DNA of 6,102 nucleotides. Source: a virus. Below the pieces are notes generated by a model that had not been told where the DNA came from, searched no databases, and worked only from the letters and a program-made list of their open reading frames with translations. Location of the stretch: the IMG/VR virus record IMGVR_UViG_3300045988_009452, positions 1-6,102 of that record; one strand, given 5' to 3'. Position numbers and translations under genes: made by a program. The stretch's first letter is position 1; every line of letters starts with the position of its first letter. Below are positions 162 to 6,102 of this stretch, one piece after another.

Positions 162-2078
162 TTACATAATTGGAATTTGTTTTGCACTCATTACTCTACG
201 GGCATTAATTCTGAATCCTATTTGAACCCAGAAGTCCTGATTGCTTAGTTCATTAGTTGCGAATGTTCCAGTGAATTCTTTCGGATTGATGTAGGTTGTT
301 GTATTCTCTATCTCTCCGTCTATTCCTACCGTGTAAATTCTGTTAAGACACATATAGCTTTCACTACCTCCTACTGCAAAGTTTCCATATGACTTATTAT
401 AGTTTGTCATGTAATTAATCCATGCTACGGTTTTTCCTACTGCTGCATTTTCGTTTGCATCTGCGTGCATCCATTTTTGCATAAGGTCTTGGTAACCTAT
501 TCCGTCTAATTGAGGCTTGTGCAGGTCGTCTAATGTGTCTAAGTCGTTGTCCCAGTCATTACCCTGCGAGTAGTCTACTCTTGGAGTAATGCTTGCCAGT
601 CCTATTATATAACACGGCTCGCTTACTTTGATTGTTACCGTACCCCCTTTAGGGTTGCTGTTGTAGCCTTTTCCTCCTAAACTACCTAGTGGTTCGTTGT
701 TGTTTATCTCTGTAGCTGATGTACTTACTACCTCTGAGAATTCAATTTCTCCGGATAATCCACCCTCGTAAACGGGTGTCTCTGCTCTAAAATAGTAGTC
801 TGTAGTCCATACCGTTTGAATCCATGATTTGTAGTCCCCACCTGATATCGCTATTCTGTTTAGTAAGTTGTAGACTTTTTCCGTTAAGTTTAATGTATCG
901 ATAGTAAATGAGCCTCCGCTTGTGTCGATAGCTGTTACTGCTGATATTCCGTTATCTCCGTCAACCCATTCTTTATCTACCCAGTTGTTAAATATGTCAC
1001 TGAAGTGTGTTTTTAACGGTAAACCGTATAAAGCTCCTGAACTATTGACTCTTGTTACCAATTTGTTCATGAAGTCTATCTTGCAATTACCGCCTTCTCC
1101 GATTACGTATTCCTGTTTCTTAACTGATAGGATTTCTTCTCTTAGATTGTCTATTTCTTCGAGTTTGATTGCTTCTAACCTTATTCCTGTGTTTGCTTCC
1201 AGACTAATTCCGCTTACCTTAATTGTTCCTTGGTCGTTGTTAACCGTTTCACTCCATCTGAATTTTGCTGAATTAGGGATAGTAACATATAGTTCACCGT
1301 TGATTGATTCTAGTTTAACTGCTGCTTCTGATAGTGTCAACTCGCCTTTGATAAACTCCATGTTTTGTTCTCCTACCCAGTCAACACATCTGAATGTTAT
1401 TGTTGAATTAGCTGGTACTATAGCGTCAGGCGCTATTTCTGTCCTTACCTTAAATGTATACTCTGAACCTGTTTGTCCGGTACTTATGCTTTGTGCTGCC
1501 CATAACAGACCCTCTTGATTTTGGTCTTCATCCCATACGTATATACTATTAGTTTCTACTTCATTGTTGATTATGTAGAAGTCTTTCTCTTGCTTGTTTG
1601 CGTAGTAATTCTTAAATATGTCGAATATTGCTAATGTTGGAACTGCATTTACTTTTTTCCCTTTTTTGAATTTTTTTACCCCTAGATAATTAAATATACT
1701 GCTGTTACTTGTTTTCGCATCTGAATTAAGAAGTAATTTTGGTAACTTCACCTTGCTCATATCTAGTCCTATGTTTAACGCGTTGTTGTGTAACATAGCA
1801 TTATATAGTCTTATCGGGCATGTGAATACATCCATCTGGAACTTATAGCTCCCAAATAATGGTCCCAGTGTTGGGTGTGTCATTATTTTTTCCGCTGATT
1901 CTATTGTAAACGTGTCTCCGGGTTCCGCTAGTATCTTTAAACATGGTACTAGTGTACCGATTCCCATACTACTCCTCCAGGCAAATGATAAATCGTGTGT
2001 ACTTCTTTCATATTCTCTTAGGGAAACCGACATTTTGTCGGAATCCCCTAATGTGTTTTTCCCTATGTTTACTTTCAT
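162..2078 (-). CDS. VP1: Major capsid protein, Microviridae F/VP1 family (638 aa)
   Basis: The N-terminal block STHDLSFAWRSSMGIGTLVPCLKILAEPGDTF, followed by GPLFGSYK and the CPIRLY region, is the signature of microvirus F/VP1 capsid proteins. The size fits the large-capsid non-phiX lineages. The start overlaps the upstream ORF stop as ATGA (2078-2075). Confidence 0.95.
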   Translation of the reverse strand: MKVNIGKNTLGDSDKMSVSLREYERSTHDLSFAWRSSMGIGTLVPCLKILAEPGDTFTIESAEKIMTHPTLGPLFGSYKFQMDVFTCPIRLYNAMLHNNALNIGLDMSKVKLPKLLLNSDAKTSNSSIFNYLGVKKFKKGKKVNAVPTLAIFDIFKNYYANKQEKDFYIINNEVETNSIYVWDEDQNQEGLLWAAQSISTGQTGSEYTFKVRTEIAPDAIVPANSTITFRCVDWVGEQNMEFIKGELTLSEAAVKLESINGELYVTIPNSAKFRWSETVNNDQGTIKVSGISLEANTGIRLEAIKLEEIDNLREEILSVKKQEYVIGEGGNCKIDFMNKLVTRVNSSGALYGLPLKTHFSDIFNNWVDKEWVDGDNGISAVTAIDTSGGSFTIDTLNLTEKVYNLLNRIAISGGDYKSWIQTVWTTDYYFRAETPVYEGGLSGEIEFSEVVSTSATEINNNEPLGSLGGKGYNSNPKGGTVTIKVSEPCYIIGLASITPRVDYSQGNDWDNDLDTLDDLHKPQLDGIGYQDLMQKWMHADANENAAVGKTVAWINYMTNYNKSYGNFAVGGSESYMCLNRIYTVGIDGEIENTTTYINPKEFTGTFATNELSNQDFWVQIGFRINARRVMSAKQIPIM

Positions 2079-2686: not shown

Positions 2687-2908
2687 TTATTTTTTTACGA
2701 CTTGACCCAATGTCCAGATTACTTCCCATTTTTTTCTCTTTTCTTCTATAACACCGCCTATATATTCATCGGGGAATAACTTTCTCATAGTCGCCACTGT
2801 TTCCAAAGCTATGCCTTGTCTGTAGAATCTTTCAACTATTACCTCATCCTTCATGATAATTGTAATTCTGTAATTCTGTCTTTTCTTGATGTTCGCTTTT
2901 TCTTCCAT
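2687..2908 (-). CDS. Hypothetical protein, 73 aa; first gene after the putative promoter
   Basis: Same strand, and the ATG lies 33 nt downstream of a TAnnTTTG motif. No recognisable motif in the protein. Confidence 0.55.
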   Translation of the reverse strand: MEEKANIKKRQNYRITIIMKDEVIVERFYRQGIALETVATMRKLFPDEYIGGVIEEKRKKWEVIWTLGQVVKK

Positions 2909-2941
2909 AACTGTAATATTAATTGGTTTATTTCTGTATTA

Positions 2942-2972
2942 CAAATATACGCATTTTTTTTCAAAACACAAA
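2942..2972 (-). promoter_or_regulatory. Candidate Bacteroidota-type promoter (-33 TTTG / -7 TAnnTTTG)
   Basis: The minus strand reads TTTG (2972-2969), then 19 nt, then TATATTTG (2949-2942). This matches the published Bacteroides sigma-AB consensus TTTG-N19-TAnnTTTG. It sits in the AT-rich region just upstream of the first ORF of the gene string. Confidence 0.4.
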
Positions 2973-3056
2973 ATTTTGAGCATTTTTTTACTATAATCAT
3001 ATAATATTTTTTCTATTAAAAATAAATCTATATATGATAATAATAGCCTGTTGAAA

Positions 3057-3158
3057 CTGTTCATAACTATGTTAATTCATTTATTTACAGTTATTTATCC
3101 TGTTCATAACTTTGTTCATAACTTTTCATTTATTTATTTGCATTGTTCATAACTTTTC
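3057..3158. repeat. Iteron cluster: 4 direct copies of TGTTCATAACT
   Basis: Copies at 3058-3068, 3101-3111, 3113-3123 and 3144-3154. The 15-mer TGTTCATAACTTTTC occurs at 3113-3127 and 3144-3158. TTCATTTATTTA occurs at 3076-3087 and 3125-3136. Confidence 0.85.
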
Positions 3159-3203
3159 TCCGATAGTAGAACATTTTAATATTCCAAATTTTAAGGCATT
3201 TTT

Positions 3204-3267
3204 TTATCAACAAGTTATCAACAGGTTTATTAACCGATTTTGATAGGTTATCAACAAGTTATCAACA
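3204..3267. repeat. Iteron cluster: 20-mer TTATCAACAAGTTATCAACA twice, giving 4 direct TTATCAACA boxes (DnaA-box-like)
   Basis: Boxes at 3204-3212, 3215-3223, 3248-3256 and 3259-3267. Spacing is 11 bp within a pair and 44 bp between pairs. An inverted half-site TTGATA lies at 3240-3245. The box differs at one position from the DnaA box TTATCCACA. Confidence 0.85.
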
Positions 3268-3269
3268 CC

Positions 3270-3470
3270 CACAAGGCGAATACTTGGAGCCTTGCACATA
3301 GTTGGCAGCGTGACAACTCGGGAGTGCTGTCCCGAGTAGCGAGCTAGCCTCGCGTAGTCACGTTAATAATCGCGGCCTATGGCCGCCTACCTTCTAGTCA
3401 CTCAAGGATGGCGAAGCTAGCGAAGCTTTCGAGACTTTCGAAGCTCTAGCCTTGCCTTGCGCATTCTGGC
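3270..3470. other. G+C-rich, hairpin-dense non-coding module A at and beyond the rep 3' end
   Basis: Helices seen: CAAGGC 3272-3277 with GCCTTG 3289-3294. A three-way junction has outer stem AGCGTGAC 3307-3314 with GTCACGTT 3357-3364 (one G:T). It encloses ACTCGGGA 3316-3323 with TCCCGAGT 3330-3337, and GCGAG 3339-3343 with CTCGC 3349-3353. GCGGCC tat GGCCGC lies at 3372-3386. CGAAGCT occurs 3 times (3412, 3421, 3439), with GCTAG 3416-3420 pairing CTAGC 3446-3450 inside the last rep codons. Hand-counted G+C is about 55 percent. Confidence 0.6.
3372..3386 (-). terminator. Possible weak intrinsic terminator after rep
   Basis: On the minus strand, GCGGCC-ATA-GGCCGC is followed by GAUUAUUAA, 30 nt past the rep stop. 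The stem is short and the U-tract poor. Confidence 0.25.
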
Positions 3471-4376
3471 CAACCTTTTCTTTTGCTTCTCTATTTCCCA
3501 TTGCACTGGATTTATTCTCCATACATTTTCGCTAATTCCTTGGTAGTAATTAGTTAAATTGGCCCATGTTTCTTCGTCATCCATCATTACTTTTTCGCCG
3601 CCTATATACCTGTAACCTCGCTCTTGTTTTTCAATCCATAGTTTTTCTTTTTCTTCATCTGTGTAGATGTAGTTCCTGTAGTATTGAGGTAATGGTATCT
3701 CTGTGCCGTTAGGCAGCTTGTAATTTTCATTAGTTTCGCATGGCACATATCTGTTCCTTCTTGCATTATAACTTTTCCAGTATTCTTTGCCTATACCTTT
3801 TGAAGCCATTACCTTACCTATGAATTCAGGGTTTTTTTCTGGCATCTTTAGCATGTACTTGGTGATGTAATTGATGGTCTTTTCATTGACATAGTCACCC
3901 TTGTACCAGTAACCGTACTTCCATAGTCTCAACAGTGAAGCATCTCCCCACAATATGCCGTGCATGTGTATTCTTTCGAAGTCTTCACCTAGTTCTGTTA
4001 TGAACCAGTATTTAGGATATTTCCCGTTGTTGTATTTTCTGTACAACTCCATGAAGTGCCGCAATGCATAATAGCACATCTGATTTTGTTCTTCGTAGTT
4101 TGGCTTTTTCTTTATTGCCAGCTTCTCACCTATATTATTAAGCCATTCATCTGAAAACGTGAATGTTACAAATGTTGCTGGAACTGTTGCATTCTTCATC
4201 TCTTCATTAAGCCTGATGCACCAGTTTCTTTTCTTTTCCTTACGGCATTCTATGCAGACACCACATGATGCTGGTACATACCTTAGCCTCTCGTCCGTGC
4301 AGACTGGAGGATTATAGTCATTTTTCTTGCTAGGTATATACTTTGGATTCAATATATATTTCGTATATAAACACAT
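3417..4376 (-). CDS. VP4: Replication initiation protein, HUH rolling-circle endonuclease (Microviridae VP4 / gpA-like), 319 aa
   Basis: RCR motif I FVTFTF, motif II HUH as IHMHGILW, and motif III tyrosine block YITKYMLK, plus the N-terminal Cys cluster CGVCIECRKEKKRNW typical of VP4. I place the start at the ATG at 4376 (MCLYTKYILNPKY), the usual VP4 N-terminus. The track ORF starts 13 codons further upstream. Confidence 0.93.
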   Translation of the reverse strand: MCLYTKYILNPKYIPSKKNDYNPPVCTDERLRYVPASCGVCIECRKEKKRNWCIRLNEEMKNATVPATFVTFTFSDEWLNNIGEKLAIKKKPNYEEQNQMCYYALRHFMELYRKYNNGKYPKYWFITELGEDFERIHMHGILWGDASLLRLWKYGYWYKGDYVNEKTINYITKYMLKMPEKNPEFIGKVMASKGIGKEYWKSYNARRNRYVPCETNENYKLPNGTEIPLPQYYRNYIYTDEEKEKLWIEKQERGYRYIGGEKVMMDDEETWANLTNYYQGISENVWRINPVQWEIEKQKKRLARMRKARLELRKSRKLR

Positions 4377-4390
4377 AATTATAAAATTTT

Positions 4391-4660
4391 GGTTATAAAT
4401 AATGAGAGGTCGCAACCTCCCTGCTTGGTTGTTACTCCTTCAGGTGGTTCGACCTCTCGTTGTTTATGACCCTAGCCGCGCGGCGATTGCGCGCCACATA
4501 GTAGCGAATTCTGCATAGCGCGTTAGGGATTGCAGGCGAGTATGCCCGTAGGGCATTTGTTTGAGCCGGAAAGCCCGACCCCTTTAGGGGTAACGCCCAA
4601 AATATAGTCACCCACGTATTCCGTGTGCGTATTATTGCGCGCGCGTTGATACGTGTGACA
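4391..4660. other. G+C-rich, hairpin-dense non-coding module B between VP2 and rep
   Basis: A 22-nt imperfect inverted repeat spans 4391-4412 and 4450-4471 (19 Watson-Crick plus 3 T:G on the plus strand; perfect 9-bp core GAGAGGTCG/CGACCTCTC). Other helices: GCGCG 4478-4482 with CGCGC 4490-4494; CTGCA 4511-4515 with TGCAG 4531-4535; ATGCCC gta GGGCAT 4542-4556; ACCCC ttta GGGGT 4578-4591. GTCAC-cc-ACGTAT 4607-4619 pairs with ATACGTGTGAC 4649-4659, enclosing CGTGTGCGT 4622-4630 paired with GCGCGCGCG 4637-4645. Hand-counted G+C is about 54 percent. Confidence 0.6.
4596..4659 (-). terminator. Possible intrinsic terminator/attenuator after VP2
   Basis: On the minus strand, an 11-bp bulged stem (4659-4649 with 4619-4607) begins 4 nt after the VP2 stop and is followed directly by UAUAUUUUGGG (4606-4596). 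The loop is large, so this is atypical. Confidence 0.35.
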
Positions 4661-4663
4661 AGT

Positions 4664-5731
4664 TTATTTCTTTGTGAAAAAGTACTTTATAATTCCAAGC
4701 AACAATTTGCTATATTTACTATCCGCTCCAAGCTCGTTAAGCAGGTCTCCGAACGCTTTATCATTCTTCAGGTTCCAGTCCATTTCTTCATACTTCTTGG
4801 TATTGACTTTGTAGCCGTCTGTTTCGCCTTTTACAATTTCTTCCAGATTGTTAAACAGTCCTACGATTTTGTTTTGTTCGAAATCCGCTTTGTCAAACTT
4901 CATTCCAAGCTCTTTGAGTTCTGTTTTTAGTCCTTGTAACTCTTTCATTCCGAACAATTGTTCGTATGTTAGTTTGGCTCCATTTTGCTGTATTTCTGCG
5001 GCATTTCTCTTTATGTCATTAATCCATACCTGAAACTCTGCTAATTTGTTTTCGTTTTTCAACTTGTTGATTTGTTCGTCTATCTGTTCATTTGTCTTCT
5101 TTAGGTTGTTGATTTCTTGTTCTGCTTTTCCCGTGTTGACCTTTGTCGCATTGTTAGCTAGGTTCTTGGCTATAAGATCCAAACCTGCGCTAGCCATGTC
5201 TGTCGTTACTTTCTTCATAGTATCTGCTTTGATTGAGTTAGTCTGCGCTTTAGTTAACTCTATCTGTGCCTTTTGTGCTTCTGCTTGCAGTGCTACTTGT
5301 ATTCCCATCGGTTGCATCGGTGTTACTGCCGGCATCTGTCCTCCTGATGATGTAGCAGCTGTTGAACTCCCGCCTGCTCCTCCGCCACCATATAGTAACG
5401 CTGGATTCAGTCCTGCTGCTTCGTACCTTTCCTTTTCTGCTGTTGGGTTGTTGTATTCGTTCTGCTTGTCAAACGTATAGTCATACATTTCCCTTGCTAG
5501 GTTTTGGTTATATGCTGCGGTCTGTTTGTTGTAGTCGAATTGAAGGCCCATTCTTGCAAGTTCAGCTTCGTTTTGTTTATTGAACATCTCTCTCCCATAT
5601 TCAAACGCTTCTTGTTGCATTTTCCTTTGTTGGCGTGCGTTAATTCCTTGTCCTATAAGGCCCATTCCTCCGCCTAATACACCGGATAATAGGTTTGAAC
5701 CGCCACCTTTTAAAAAATCTAGAAATCTCAT
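4664..5731 (-). CDS. VP2: Minor capsid / DNA pilot protein, Microviridae VP2 (gpH-like), 355 aa
   Basis: It has a Gly-rich N-terminus, the ERYEAAGLNPALLYGGGGAGG block characteristic of microvirus VP2 proteins, and a long coiled-coil-like Q/K/E/N-rich C-terminal half. Its position between capsid and rep also fits. Confidence 0.85.
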   Translation of the reverse strand: MRFLDFLKGGGSNLLSGVLGGGMGLIGQGINARQQRKMQQEAFEYGREMFNKQNEAELARMGLQFDYNKQTAAYNQNLAREMYDYTFDKQNEYNNPTAEKERYEAAGLNPALLYGGGGAGGSSTAATSSGGQMPAVTPMQPMGIQVALQAEAQKAQIELTKAQTNSIKADTMKKVTTDMASAGLDLIAKNLANNATKVNTGKAEQEINNLKKTNEQIDEQINKLKNENKLAEFQVWINDIKRNAAEIQQNGAKLTYEQLFGMKELQGLKTELKELGMKFDKADFEQNKIVGLFNNLEEIVKGETDGYKVNTKKYEEMDWNLKNDKAFGDLLNELGADSKYSKLLLGIIKYFFTKK

Positions 5732-5739
5732 ATTTTTCG

Positions 5740-5849
5740 CGCTTTTTCTGAAAAAGCGATAAACTTTAACTTGATATATATGTACAGTTGCGTAAAACTA
5801 CGCAACCAACTTTGTTGTAATAGTATTAAGGGGAGCATAAACTCCCCTT
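5740..5849. promoter_or_regulatory. Three perfect 8-bp hairpins in the ORF106-VP2 intergenic region
   Basis: H1 is CGCTTTTT ctg AAAAAGCG at 5740-5758, ending 8 nt before the VP2 ATG. H2 is GTTGCGTA aaac TACGCAAC at 5787-5806. H3 is AAGGGGAG cataaa CTCCCCTT at 5828-5849, starting 4 nt after the ORF106 stop. Function not determined. Confidence 0.6.
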
Positions 5850-5853
5850 TTCT

Positions 5854-6102
5854 TTATGTACTCGGAACCTCTGCTTCGTCAGGTTCCGTCGGCGTATCCG
5901 TTTTTTTCGGTTCCATTCCTTTAGCTTTTAGAAGTTTTTGTTTGTTTCCTGCTTCCATTTTTTCTAACACCAGATCCCATTTGTCTGTTCTGATATTGAA
6001 TTGTGGTAATACTCCTTCTTTTTTTTCAGTGTAAACTAATGGCGCTCCGTCTTTTATCGGTTCTTTGTTTACTGTGATTCTTTTTACTTTCGTTTCAATT
6101 AA
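5854..6102 (-). CDS. 3' part of the same 106-aa junction-spanning ORF (6018-6102 duplicates 1-85)
   Basis: Frame continuity checked: position 6102 equals position 85 and is a codon first base. Stop TAA at 5856-5854. Confidence 0.6.
   Translation of the reverse strand, partial: LIETKVKRITVNKEPIKDGAPLVYTEKKEGVLPQFNIRTDKWDLVLEKMEAGNKQKLLKAKGMEPKKTDTPTEPDEAEVPST
6018..6102. repeat. Terminal direct repeat, copy 2 (assembly overlap of a circular genome)
   Basis: Identical to 1-85. It is coding sequence of the junction-spanning ORF, so it is an artefact of linearisation rather than a biological repeat. Confidence 0.97.

Follow-up and report, generated by a model that had tools for sequence, protein, structure and literature searches.

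A covarying hairpin module in the VP2-rep spacer of a microvirus, shared with conjugative elements and with the Frpo units of plasmid F

The stretch of DNA analysed here (the window, 6,102 nt) is the IMG/VR record IMGVR_UViG_3300045988_009452. It represents a whole circular genome of a microvirus, 6,017 nt long, with positions 1-85 repeated at 6018-6102. All recognisable genes are on its minus strand, called the gene strand below. The subject of this paper is the spacer between rep and the gene for the DNA pilot protein VP2 (4377-4663), and in particular a five-helix module of about 85 nt conserved within it on the plus strand (4520-4606: helices at 4520-4596, tail to about 4606). The module recurs in unrelated microviruses, in Bacteroides conjugative elements and, in related form, in plasmid F. 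We consider it fairly probable that it is a cis element which acts on single-stranded DNA (ssDNA) entering a cell, starting complementary-strand synthesis or early transcription there, and which is of the same kind as Frpo, single-strand initiation (ssi) and single-strand origin (sso) elements. The features referred to are as follows.

162-2078, minus strand: major capsid protein (MCP) gene (Pfam Phage_F, phrog_514)
3417-4376, minus strand: rep, with its ATG at 4376 (PF23343, phrog_942)
4391-4471, plus strand: 81-nt hairpin between module and rep, an inverted repeat with 22-nt arms (4391-4412/4450-4471) that are 86% complementary
4472-4519, plus strand: linker with a small G+C hairpin (CGCGCGG.../...GCGCGCC), common to type A and type D microviruses
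4520-4524/4592-4596, plus strand: helix P1 (RNAalifold and pair-cell test)
4526-4531/4571-4576, plus strand: helix P2, with a conserved A.G (RNAalifold and pair-cell test)
4532-4534/4568-4570, plus strand: 3x3 internal loop, G-N-A/G-G-A
4535-4537/4565-4567, plus strand: helix P3 (RNAalifold and pair-cell test)
4538-4539/4559-4564, plus strand: asymmetric internal loop
4540-4558, plus strand: hairpin hp1, with a GTA triloop at 4548-4550 (pair-cell test)
4556-4563, plus strand: promoter-like octamer TTTGTTTG, lying across the 3' arm of hp1 and the asymmetric loop
4578-4591, plus strand: hairpin hp2 (pair-cell test)
4597-4606, plus strand: conserved tail CCCAAAATAT(A) after P1 (alignments)
4607-4659, plus strand: 53-nt 3' hairpin (folds), common only to the nearest relative
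4664-5731, minus strand: VP2 (stop 4664-4666; phrog_8689)

A first-pass annotation of this DNA, made from its letters, had described the roughly 287 nt between rep and VP2 as non-coding, and this is borne out. No supported open reading frame (ORF) is present in the spacer: neither a 59-aa ORF (4432-4611) nor a 101-aa ORF has a family match, and relatives' spacers carry indels of 1, 2 and 56 nt. A coding reading was rejected on both counts, since these indels disrupt the frame. The G+C content of 4391-4660 is 0.53, close to the 54% first estimated by hand, compared with 0.384 genome-wide. The two outer hairpins are also where they had been placed, the 81-nt one ending 14 nt from the rep ATG and the 53-nt one beginning 4 nt from the VP2 stop.

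In the comparison that had been proposed, the spacer folds better than dinucleotide-shuffled controls on both strands, with RNA parameters (z = -8.4 on the plus strand, -4.8 on the minus strand) and with DNA parameters (z = -6.6 and -4.3, respectively). Under either set the plus strand, antisense to the genes, is clearly the stronger fold. The polarity of G.T pairs in the flanking hairpins favours the same strand: all three arm mismatches of the 81-nt hairpin read as T.G on the plus strand; the folded 5' flank has 4-5 G.T pairs on the plus strand and none on the minus strand (in the window and the microvirus copies L001, L259, and L040); the 3' hairpin has 3-4 and 0-1, respectively; and on the minus strand the flanking hairpins carry A.C mismatches. 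The annotation had placed the structure on the gene strand, but by z score and wobble pairs it is optimised for the opposite one.

The flanking hairpins are found only in close relatives. BLAST matches to the 81-nt hairpin are confined to clade-1 (close, type A) microviruses; one of these relatives, L003 (IMGVR_UViG_3300045988_001793), has compensatory changes in it. The island at 4391-4660 is therefore a composite of a widely shared core and lineage-specific hairpins.

The evidence for the core comes mainly from covariation. RNAalifold, given an unfitted MAFFT alignment, recovers the three nested helices P1-P3. In 40 sequences aligned in this way, 96.3% of pair cells are paired, against 33-53% with slid partners; for 92 distinct copies in a model-fitted alignment the figures are 96.6% and 35-50%. 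None of 500 shuffles reaches the observed value in either case, although the sequences are related and shuffle controls thus overstate significance; the slide controls and the RNAalifold prediction are unaffected by this. Fitting to the model applies to alignments A4 and A6; A2 was unfitted and agrees with them. Individual pairs show double-sided changes: in the 40-sequence alignment 23 sequences have C-G and 17 have U-A at one P1 pair, while at one P2 pair 24 have U-A and 15 have A-U. Among 16 representatives drawn from all contexts, 96.4% of pair cells are paired, with P1 and hp2 paired in all. Invariant blocks (YAGGGATWG.AGGCGAGTAT; ATWTGTYTGAGCCGGAWAGCCCG; RACGCCC) alternate along the copies with hairpins of varying sequence. 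A covariance model of the module (R1) has a single match in the window, at 4508-4622 on the plus strand (107.9 bits). The homologues and covariation that the first-pass annotation had proposed looking for are thus both present.

A covarying multi-helix fold with conserved junctions resembles RNA of the riboswitch or ribozyme class, and the first-pass annotation had suggested two RNA-level roles, a structured non-coding RNA and a tandem attenuator limiting read-through into rep. More generally, the element could be a small RNA gene on the plus strand, or a leader, attenuator or terminator controlling rep on the gene strand. Some local features fit: a gene-strand 3' hairpin and then a U-tract come after VP2, a terminator-like hairpin stands just before rep, and in sense-type microviruses the module is 60-260 nt upstream of a gene. 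Read along the gene strand, the 4659-4607 hairpin is followed by UAUAUUUUG (by eye), as first noted; there are T-tracts on both strands, and the hairpin may also serve as a VP2 terminator. The terminator scan made no call at this position; it made one on the minus strand at 4421-4404. The asymmetric loop, with its GA/GA, might be read as a K-turn.

Nevertheless, an RNA role seems very unlikely. The annotation had not recognised a known RNA family, and a cmscan search of the whole window against Rfam (E<=10) likewise gives none in the spacer, just two chance matches, both outside it; ARAGORN finds no tRNA or tmRNA genes in the window. A scan for sigma-70-type promoters near the island does no better than on shuffled sequence, and the copies examined share no conserved promoter or terminator around the module. 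The G.T wobbles assign the window fold to the non-coding strand, and an attenuator on the gene strand could not use them. The loops also point to DNA: C(GNA)G triloops make up 27 of the 45 hairpin loops, rather than the GNRA or UNCG loops of RNA. Such triloops are exceptionally stable in DNA, and are a hallmark of stable DNA mini-hairpins. The minimum free energy fold of the plus strand with DNA parameters reproduces the module architecture. That the island works as folded ssDNA, not as RNA, is part of the best explanation we can offer. The orientation of the copies, considered next, argues the same way, as does the position of the module on the transferred strand in plasmid F and, putatively, in Bacteroides plasmids.

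In a BLAST search of GenBank phages, the spacer has matches of 82-93% identity in microviruses that are otherwise unrelated, in intergenic DNA without annotation, while the rest of the window genome has no alignment there (with megablast, none of the window's coding regions aligned at >=85% to a GenBank phage). About 130 further copies come from pattern scans of IMG/VR and public metagenomes. In microviruses (about 100 contigs, from the gut) the module is always intergenic, with varying neighbours: it may follow the MCP gene or the pilot gene, or come before or after rep. Taking both collections together, it is antisense to the microvirus genes in 57 contigs and sense in 41 (21 and 15 clusters, respectively, at 70% identity of the largest protein). 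An RNA would not keep its function when reverse-complemented, and an attenuator of rep should not occur in both orientations and at such varied positions.

What orientation does follow, without exception, is strand composition. In all 98 of these microvirus contigs the T-rich strand bears the module, whichever strand has the genes. In sense-module genomes, 4-fold sites of the coding strand are 11-19% A and 32-72% T; in antisense-module genomes (the window and all its Rep relatives) they are 40-75% A and 7-20% T. Averaged over each group, the two compositions mirror one another. The coding strand of the window and the Rep relatives L003-L012 is 43-75% A at these sites, a skew common to all Rep relatives whether they have the module or not, and the window's plus (non-coding) strand is 40% T overall. 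Near-identical module subtypes (type B, and the subtype of L015 and L018) occur in both orientation groups; the module must therefore have crossed between them at least twice, keeping to the T-rich strand each time.

In five of six reference microviruses (phiX174, G4, Chp1, Chp2, and SpV4, all of known polarity) the packaged strand is T-rich at 4-fold sites (47-69% T). Judging from this T-skew, window-type microviruses probably encapsidate the template strand, that is, the T-rich non-coding one.

A strand-specific element whose orientation follows the packaged strand, and which in the window adjoins rep, might also be the microvirus viral-strand origin (the Rep nick site, or double-strand origin) or a packaging signal. 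This is hardly probable. Most microviruses lack the module, including close Rep relatives, and in L003, whose Rep is 82% identical to that of the window, it is partly deleted: a clean 56-nt deletion in the region 3790-3914 takes P2, P3, hp1, and the 5' strand of P1, leaving hp2, the tail and the flanking hairpins in place. It is present in plasmids and integrative and conjugative elements (ICEs) with unrelated relaxases, which have their own origin of transfer (oriT) several kb away. The AT-rich iteron region at 2901-3280 (below) is also more conserved, and a better origin candidate.

A further possibility is that the module is selfish or neutral mobile DNA, moving via ssDNA in the manner of miniature inverted-repeat (MITE) or palindrome-associated (PATE) transposable elements, or a recombination hotspot, without benefit to its carriers; its orientation would then come from the insertion mechanism. 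Its varied intergenic positions and its two orientations relative to genes would agree with this, as would its loss in L003, a unit of about 125 nt common to sense and antisense genomes, and module identities of 80-95% between genomes whose proteins are <50% identical. So would the metagenome contig L297 (1,979 nt), in which a microvirus 5' half is joined to an ICE 3' half within the module. Yet there is one copy per microvirus genome, with no sign of proliferation, no target-site duplications or terminal repeats are found at the homology boundaries, and there is no copy among 120 bacterial chromosomal stretches listed. An IS200/IS605-type or MITE identity was rejected, given the absence of repeats, duplications, and multi-copy behaviour. 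Junction nucleotides that are invariant across phyla, and a fixed place at the end of the Frpo unit in thousands of plasmids, point to selection for function. On balance we think a purely selfish element unlikely.

Some individual copies deserve separate mention. The module of L297 is at 1550-1665: its 5' half and upstream flank are those of microvirus type B, while hp2, the tail and the downstream flank are those of ICE type F. Either this contig is a true recombinant that crossed over within the module, or it was misassembled as a chimera through the shared sequence. Five sense-type, T-rich microvirus copies (L242, L261, L276, L277, and L213) sit on contigs of 21-129 kb, which suggests integrated prophages (Alpavirinae-like) or chimeric assemblies. 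The 120 chromosomal stretches mentioned above were listed as 16-mer matches in the genome collection; all are chance matches.

About two dozen metagenomic copies are on long human-gut contigs with ordinary bacterial gene composition. These are conjugative elements of the Bacteroidetes type, encoding TraG, TrbL/TraJ, TraM, TraN, a BfmA/BtgA mobilisation protein, and a MobB relaxase. In cultured Bacteroides uniformis, two plasmids have the module at 94-96% identity. In one of them, pBuniCL06T06-1, the order along the module strand is: coupling protein, relaxase, and mob genes; some 1.2 kb without ORFs, which is probably oriT; a gene block of about 9 kb encoding DNA-binding proteins, an orphan N6-methylase, DUF2958, PcfM, and ParB, templated almost wholly by the module's strand; the module; and the tra operon. 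Other variants have, as the gene that comes first after the module, one for a PD-(D/E)XK nuclease or a PAPS-reductase-like protein. In geometry as in gene content, this context corresponds to a plasmid leading region; plasmid F has the same geometry with similar content.

One GenBank entry labelled "Bacteriophage sp." (MT836100.1, L305, 18,894 nt) is not a phage. It encodes a tra operon of the Bacteroidetes conjugative-transposon type (TraG, TraJ, TraM, TraN), along with a BfmA/BtgA mobilisation protein, a MobB relaxase, and Mfa-like fimbrillin and BACON-domain proteins; its module geometry is that of the B. uniformis plasmid, again with a putative oriT and transferred strand.

Outside the Bacteroidetes, a MOBF plasmid of Moraxella ovis has a module match of 49.8 bits adjoining an antirestriction gene. 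This copy has the same P1, P2, hp2, and tail, with a 103-nt hairpin in place of the inner domain, and its ssDNA fold is again polar (z = -6.2, against -2.8 on the opposite strand).

Plasmid F (L310) has two matches on the template (transferred) strand: 58,067-58,184, upstream of ssb (35.1 bits, E ~7e-11), and 63,455-63,572, upstream of ygeA/ygeB (22.2 bits, E ~7e-6), these covariance-model E-values being rough because calibration was shortened. The two are 5.4 kb apart with hok/flm in between. This flanking arrangement is that of the published Frpo2 and Frpo1 (PMC9849209). Between the two F loci identity is about 92-95% across some 300 nt and stops just past the module tail; a conserved module of about 105 nt closes both Frpo repeats. 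It shares the outer scaffold of the window copy (P1 as GCGTY/RACGC, P2 as GGGAT./.AGCCC with its A.G, the G-N-A linker, hp2, and the GCCC tail), and in a DNA fold of the whole F unit it is a separate 3' domain of the same architecture. Microviruses, Bacteroides plasmids, the Moraxella plasmid, and F all retain the GCCC-A-rich tail motif. The F leading region has methylase, antirestriction, ssb, ParB-family, and psiB genes, which share one strand with the tra operon. Of the 4,266 plasmid records (enterobacterial) that contain the F-type module, 77% are conjugative. Overlapping one F copy on the opposite strand is a RefSeq "hypothetical protein" CDS (57,807-58,163), which may be spurious.

Frpo and ssi elements are folded ssDNA that the host RNA polymerase takes as a promoter, and Frpo serves both transcription and primer RNA synthesis (PMC11541004, PMC12672017). 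The module itself is not Frpo; that identification was rejected after comparison with the published sequences. The deposited ssiD and ColIb-P9 Frpo fragments show no homology to it, since it lies 40-90 nt 3' of them, and only some of the longer candidate regions of Samuel et al. extend into it. It is therefore a conserved distal companion rather than the promoter hairpin that has been studied. That in conjugative plasmids the module is the distal domain of Frpo-type single-strand promoter or initiation units on the transferred strand, and that the window's core belongs to a widespread module of replicons entering cells as ssDNA, are both parts of the best explanation. The single-stranded DNA promoter units themselves, Frpo and ssiD, reportedly go back to Masai and Arai in 1997.

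Sharing among ssDNA-entering replicons would also be expected of a decoy or shield against host defence or repair acting on incoming ssDNA, and the plasmid neighbours are of an anti-defence type (antirestriction, orphan methylase, ParB). In F, however, the module is inside the duplicated Frpo unit, which suggests a role in the same process; a decoy function strikes us as very improbable.

The inner domain of the Bacteroides and microvirus copies offers a clue to how an initiation element might work. The Bacteroidetes sigma-ABfr -7 promoter consensus is TAnnTTTG (PMC7366714). The octamer position in hp1 is exactly TAnnTTTG in 54 of 92 distinct copies by column tabulation. The match is also exact in all of the ICE and Bacteroides plasmid copies that were read at sequence level, and the only substitutions at otherwise invariant positions are at the two "n" positions of the box. 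Half of the box is in the unpaired asymmetric loop, as in a pre-melted promoter.

The following scheme would bring these observations together. The structure of the module, its conservation, distribution, strand association and kinship with Frpo units are established by the analyses above; the packaged strand, the host enzyme that acts and the RNA product are the parts we infer. After DNA entry, the incoming plus strand would fold. The module and the 5' hairpins would then be recognised by a host enzyme, for which RNA polymerase is favoured because of the -7 box displayed half-melted in the asymmetric loop, a primase or primosome being possible as well. The enzyme would make an RNA running 3' to 5' along the plus strand, and this would prime complementary-strand synthesis. 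The module's strand is the template for rep, the first gene that synthesis 3' to 5' from the module would meet; an RNA copied from the plus strand heads toward 4391 and then rep, and therefore would be in the sense of rep. With the rep ATG about 145 nt off, the same RNA could be the first rep transcript.

An initiation element of this kind remains, in our judgement, fairly probable, as stated at the outset, but several observations weigh against it. The window's own box, TTTGTTTG, has one mismatch (the conserved A is T), and there is no -33 TTTG; support for the RNA polymerase step is only moderate for these reasons. The inner domain that bears the box is not conserved in F or Moraxella, and the promoter boxes of F are in a different hairpin from the module. 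The distance from the published fragments and the roughness of the E-values, both noted above, also count here. One-sided substitutions within the core (3 T.G and 2 A.C) leave its strand polarity undecided. The module is dispensable: the core is mostly lost in L003 and absent from the Rep relatives L004-L012 and from six references (phiX174, G4, Chp1, Chp2, SpV4, and phiMH2K have no R1 match at E<=1e-3). One of these six, the Bdellovibrio phage phiMH2K (L205), breaks the T-skew rule, its coding strand being A-rich and very G-poor at 4-fold sites (0.45 A, 0.07 G); either the rule fails there or the polarity of this phage merits a second look. The packaged strand of window-type microviruses is read from skew, and the oriT and transferred strand of the Bacteroides elements are placed by analogy with F.

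A broader version may be offered tentatively, as possible but rather speculative. The window-type clade, including all Rep relatives examined, would package the complement of the coding strand (being "negative-sense"), and its plasmid-type module would let host RNA polymerase transcribe rep straight from virion DNA before a duplex is formed, much as Frpo does in conjugation for genes of the leading region. The module would then serve across bacteria as an ssDNA-entry signal, passed between phages and conjugative elements.

Other regions of the window bear on the composition and replication of this genome. The first-pass annotation had taken its remaining spacers to be extremely AT-rich, but 3280-3416 is 55.5% G+C. 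It is part of a second G+C-rich (55%) structured island at 3280-3480, downstream of rep and overlapping the rep 3' end, with z ~ -3.3 on both strands. Because of this island across rep, the spacer at 4377-4663 is not unique in composition. Conservation of this second island, at 79-97%, is limited to microvirus relatives of types A and D, and covariance model R1 finds no second copy of the module in it. Next to it is an AT-rich (23% G+C) non-coding region with iterons (2901-3280): TGTTCATAACTT occurs three times (3101-3155) and TTATCAACAAGTTATCAACA twice (3204-3267). The TTATCAACAAGTTATCAACA repeats amount to four copies of TTATCAACA, one mismatch from TTATCCACA, which we take to be the DnaA box consensus. 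This region has 82-92% identity among relatives and may be an origin or have a regulatory role; in type E genomes its counterpart comes immediately after the module. The spacer upstream of the pilot gene has perfect small hairpins at 5735-5763 and 5795-5850 (TTTCGCGCTTTTTC/GAAAAAGCGATAAA, GTTGCGTAAAACTACGCAAC, and AAGGGGAGCATAAACTCCCCTT) without strand polarity, which may be terminators.

Searches of the open-access full-text literature found no description of the module, of Bacteroidota ssDNA promoters, of negative-sense microviruses, or of a link between ssDNA phages and Frpo. If the proposed function is right, this would be the first link found in that literature between ssDNA phages and the single-strand promoter or initiation units of conjugative plasmids, and the first such element for Bacteroidota. 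In thousands of plasmids of clinical importance, the Frpo unit closes with a compact covarying module that falls beyond the fragments studied so far. For these uncultured microviruses, the module supplies a sequence-based host link, to Bacteroides or Bacteroidales. Microviridae are regarded as positive-sense, and packaging of a non-coding strand would be surprising; module orientation and the mirror-image skews make the question of the packaged strand testable for some of them.

Three groups of known systems invite comparison. The first is the complementary-strand origins of coliphages: G4 oric (used by primase), the phiX174 primosome assembly site (PAS; PriA), and the f1/M13 minus-strand origin (RNA polymerase). 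These too are intergenic hairpin clusters that start the second strand; unlike the window element, which is on the non-coding strand and is common to plasmids, they are on the coding (packaged) strand. The first-pass annotation had proposed, as one of its candidate roles, a single-strand origin like those of G4 or of rolling-circle replicating (RCR) plasmids. Of its proposals this is closest to the evidence in its RCR-plasmid form; kinship with G4 oric finds no support, R1 having no match in G4 or phiX174. It also holds for a smaller extent than the 270 nt first put forward, namely the widely conserved module of about 85 nt on the non-coding strand.

The second is the sso elements of RCR plasmids and ICEBs1. 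The ICEBs1 sso was found via its similarity to RCR-plasmid sso, and ICEs and small rolling-circle replicons share sso cassettes (PMC4595007). Like the module, these are non-coding, highly structured, orientation-dependent cassettes, dispensable but advantageous, that are exchanged between unrelated replicons with an ssDNA stage and are common to ICEs and small RCR replicons. The differences are that the hosts here are Bacteroidota or gut bacteria rather than Firmicutes, and that the small replicon is a virus; the likeness is one of properties, not of compared sequences.

The third and closest is Frpo/ssiD of IncF and IncI1 plasmids (PMC9849209; PMC11541004; PMC12672017). These units work on the entering single strand, upstream of genes that it templates, as is proposed for the module; both form stable strand-specific stem-loops, and the window's outer scaffold matches the 3'-terminal domain of both F units on the correct strand. 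However, the match is to a distal domain and not to the hairpin with the -35 and -10 boxes; the window's inner domain differs, bearing a Bacteroidetes -7-like box; the window element has a core of about 85 nt (270 nt with its flanks), compared with more than 400 nt; and its carrier is an ssDNA phage. The finding is real and not ordinary: it involves a new host phylum, a new carrier (a phage), and a module newly defined even in F.

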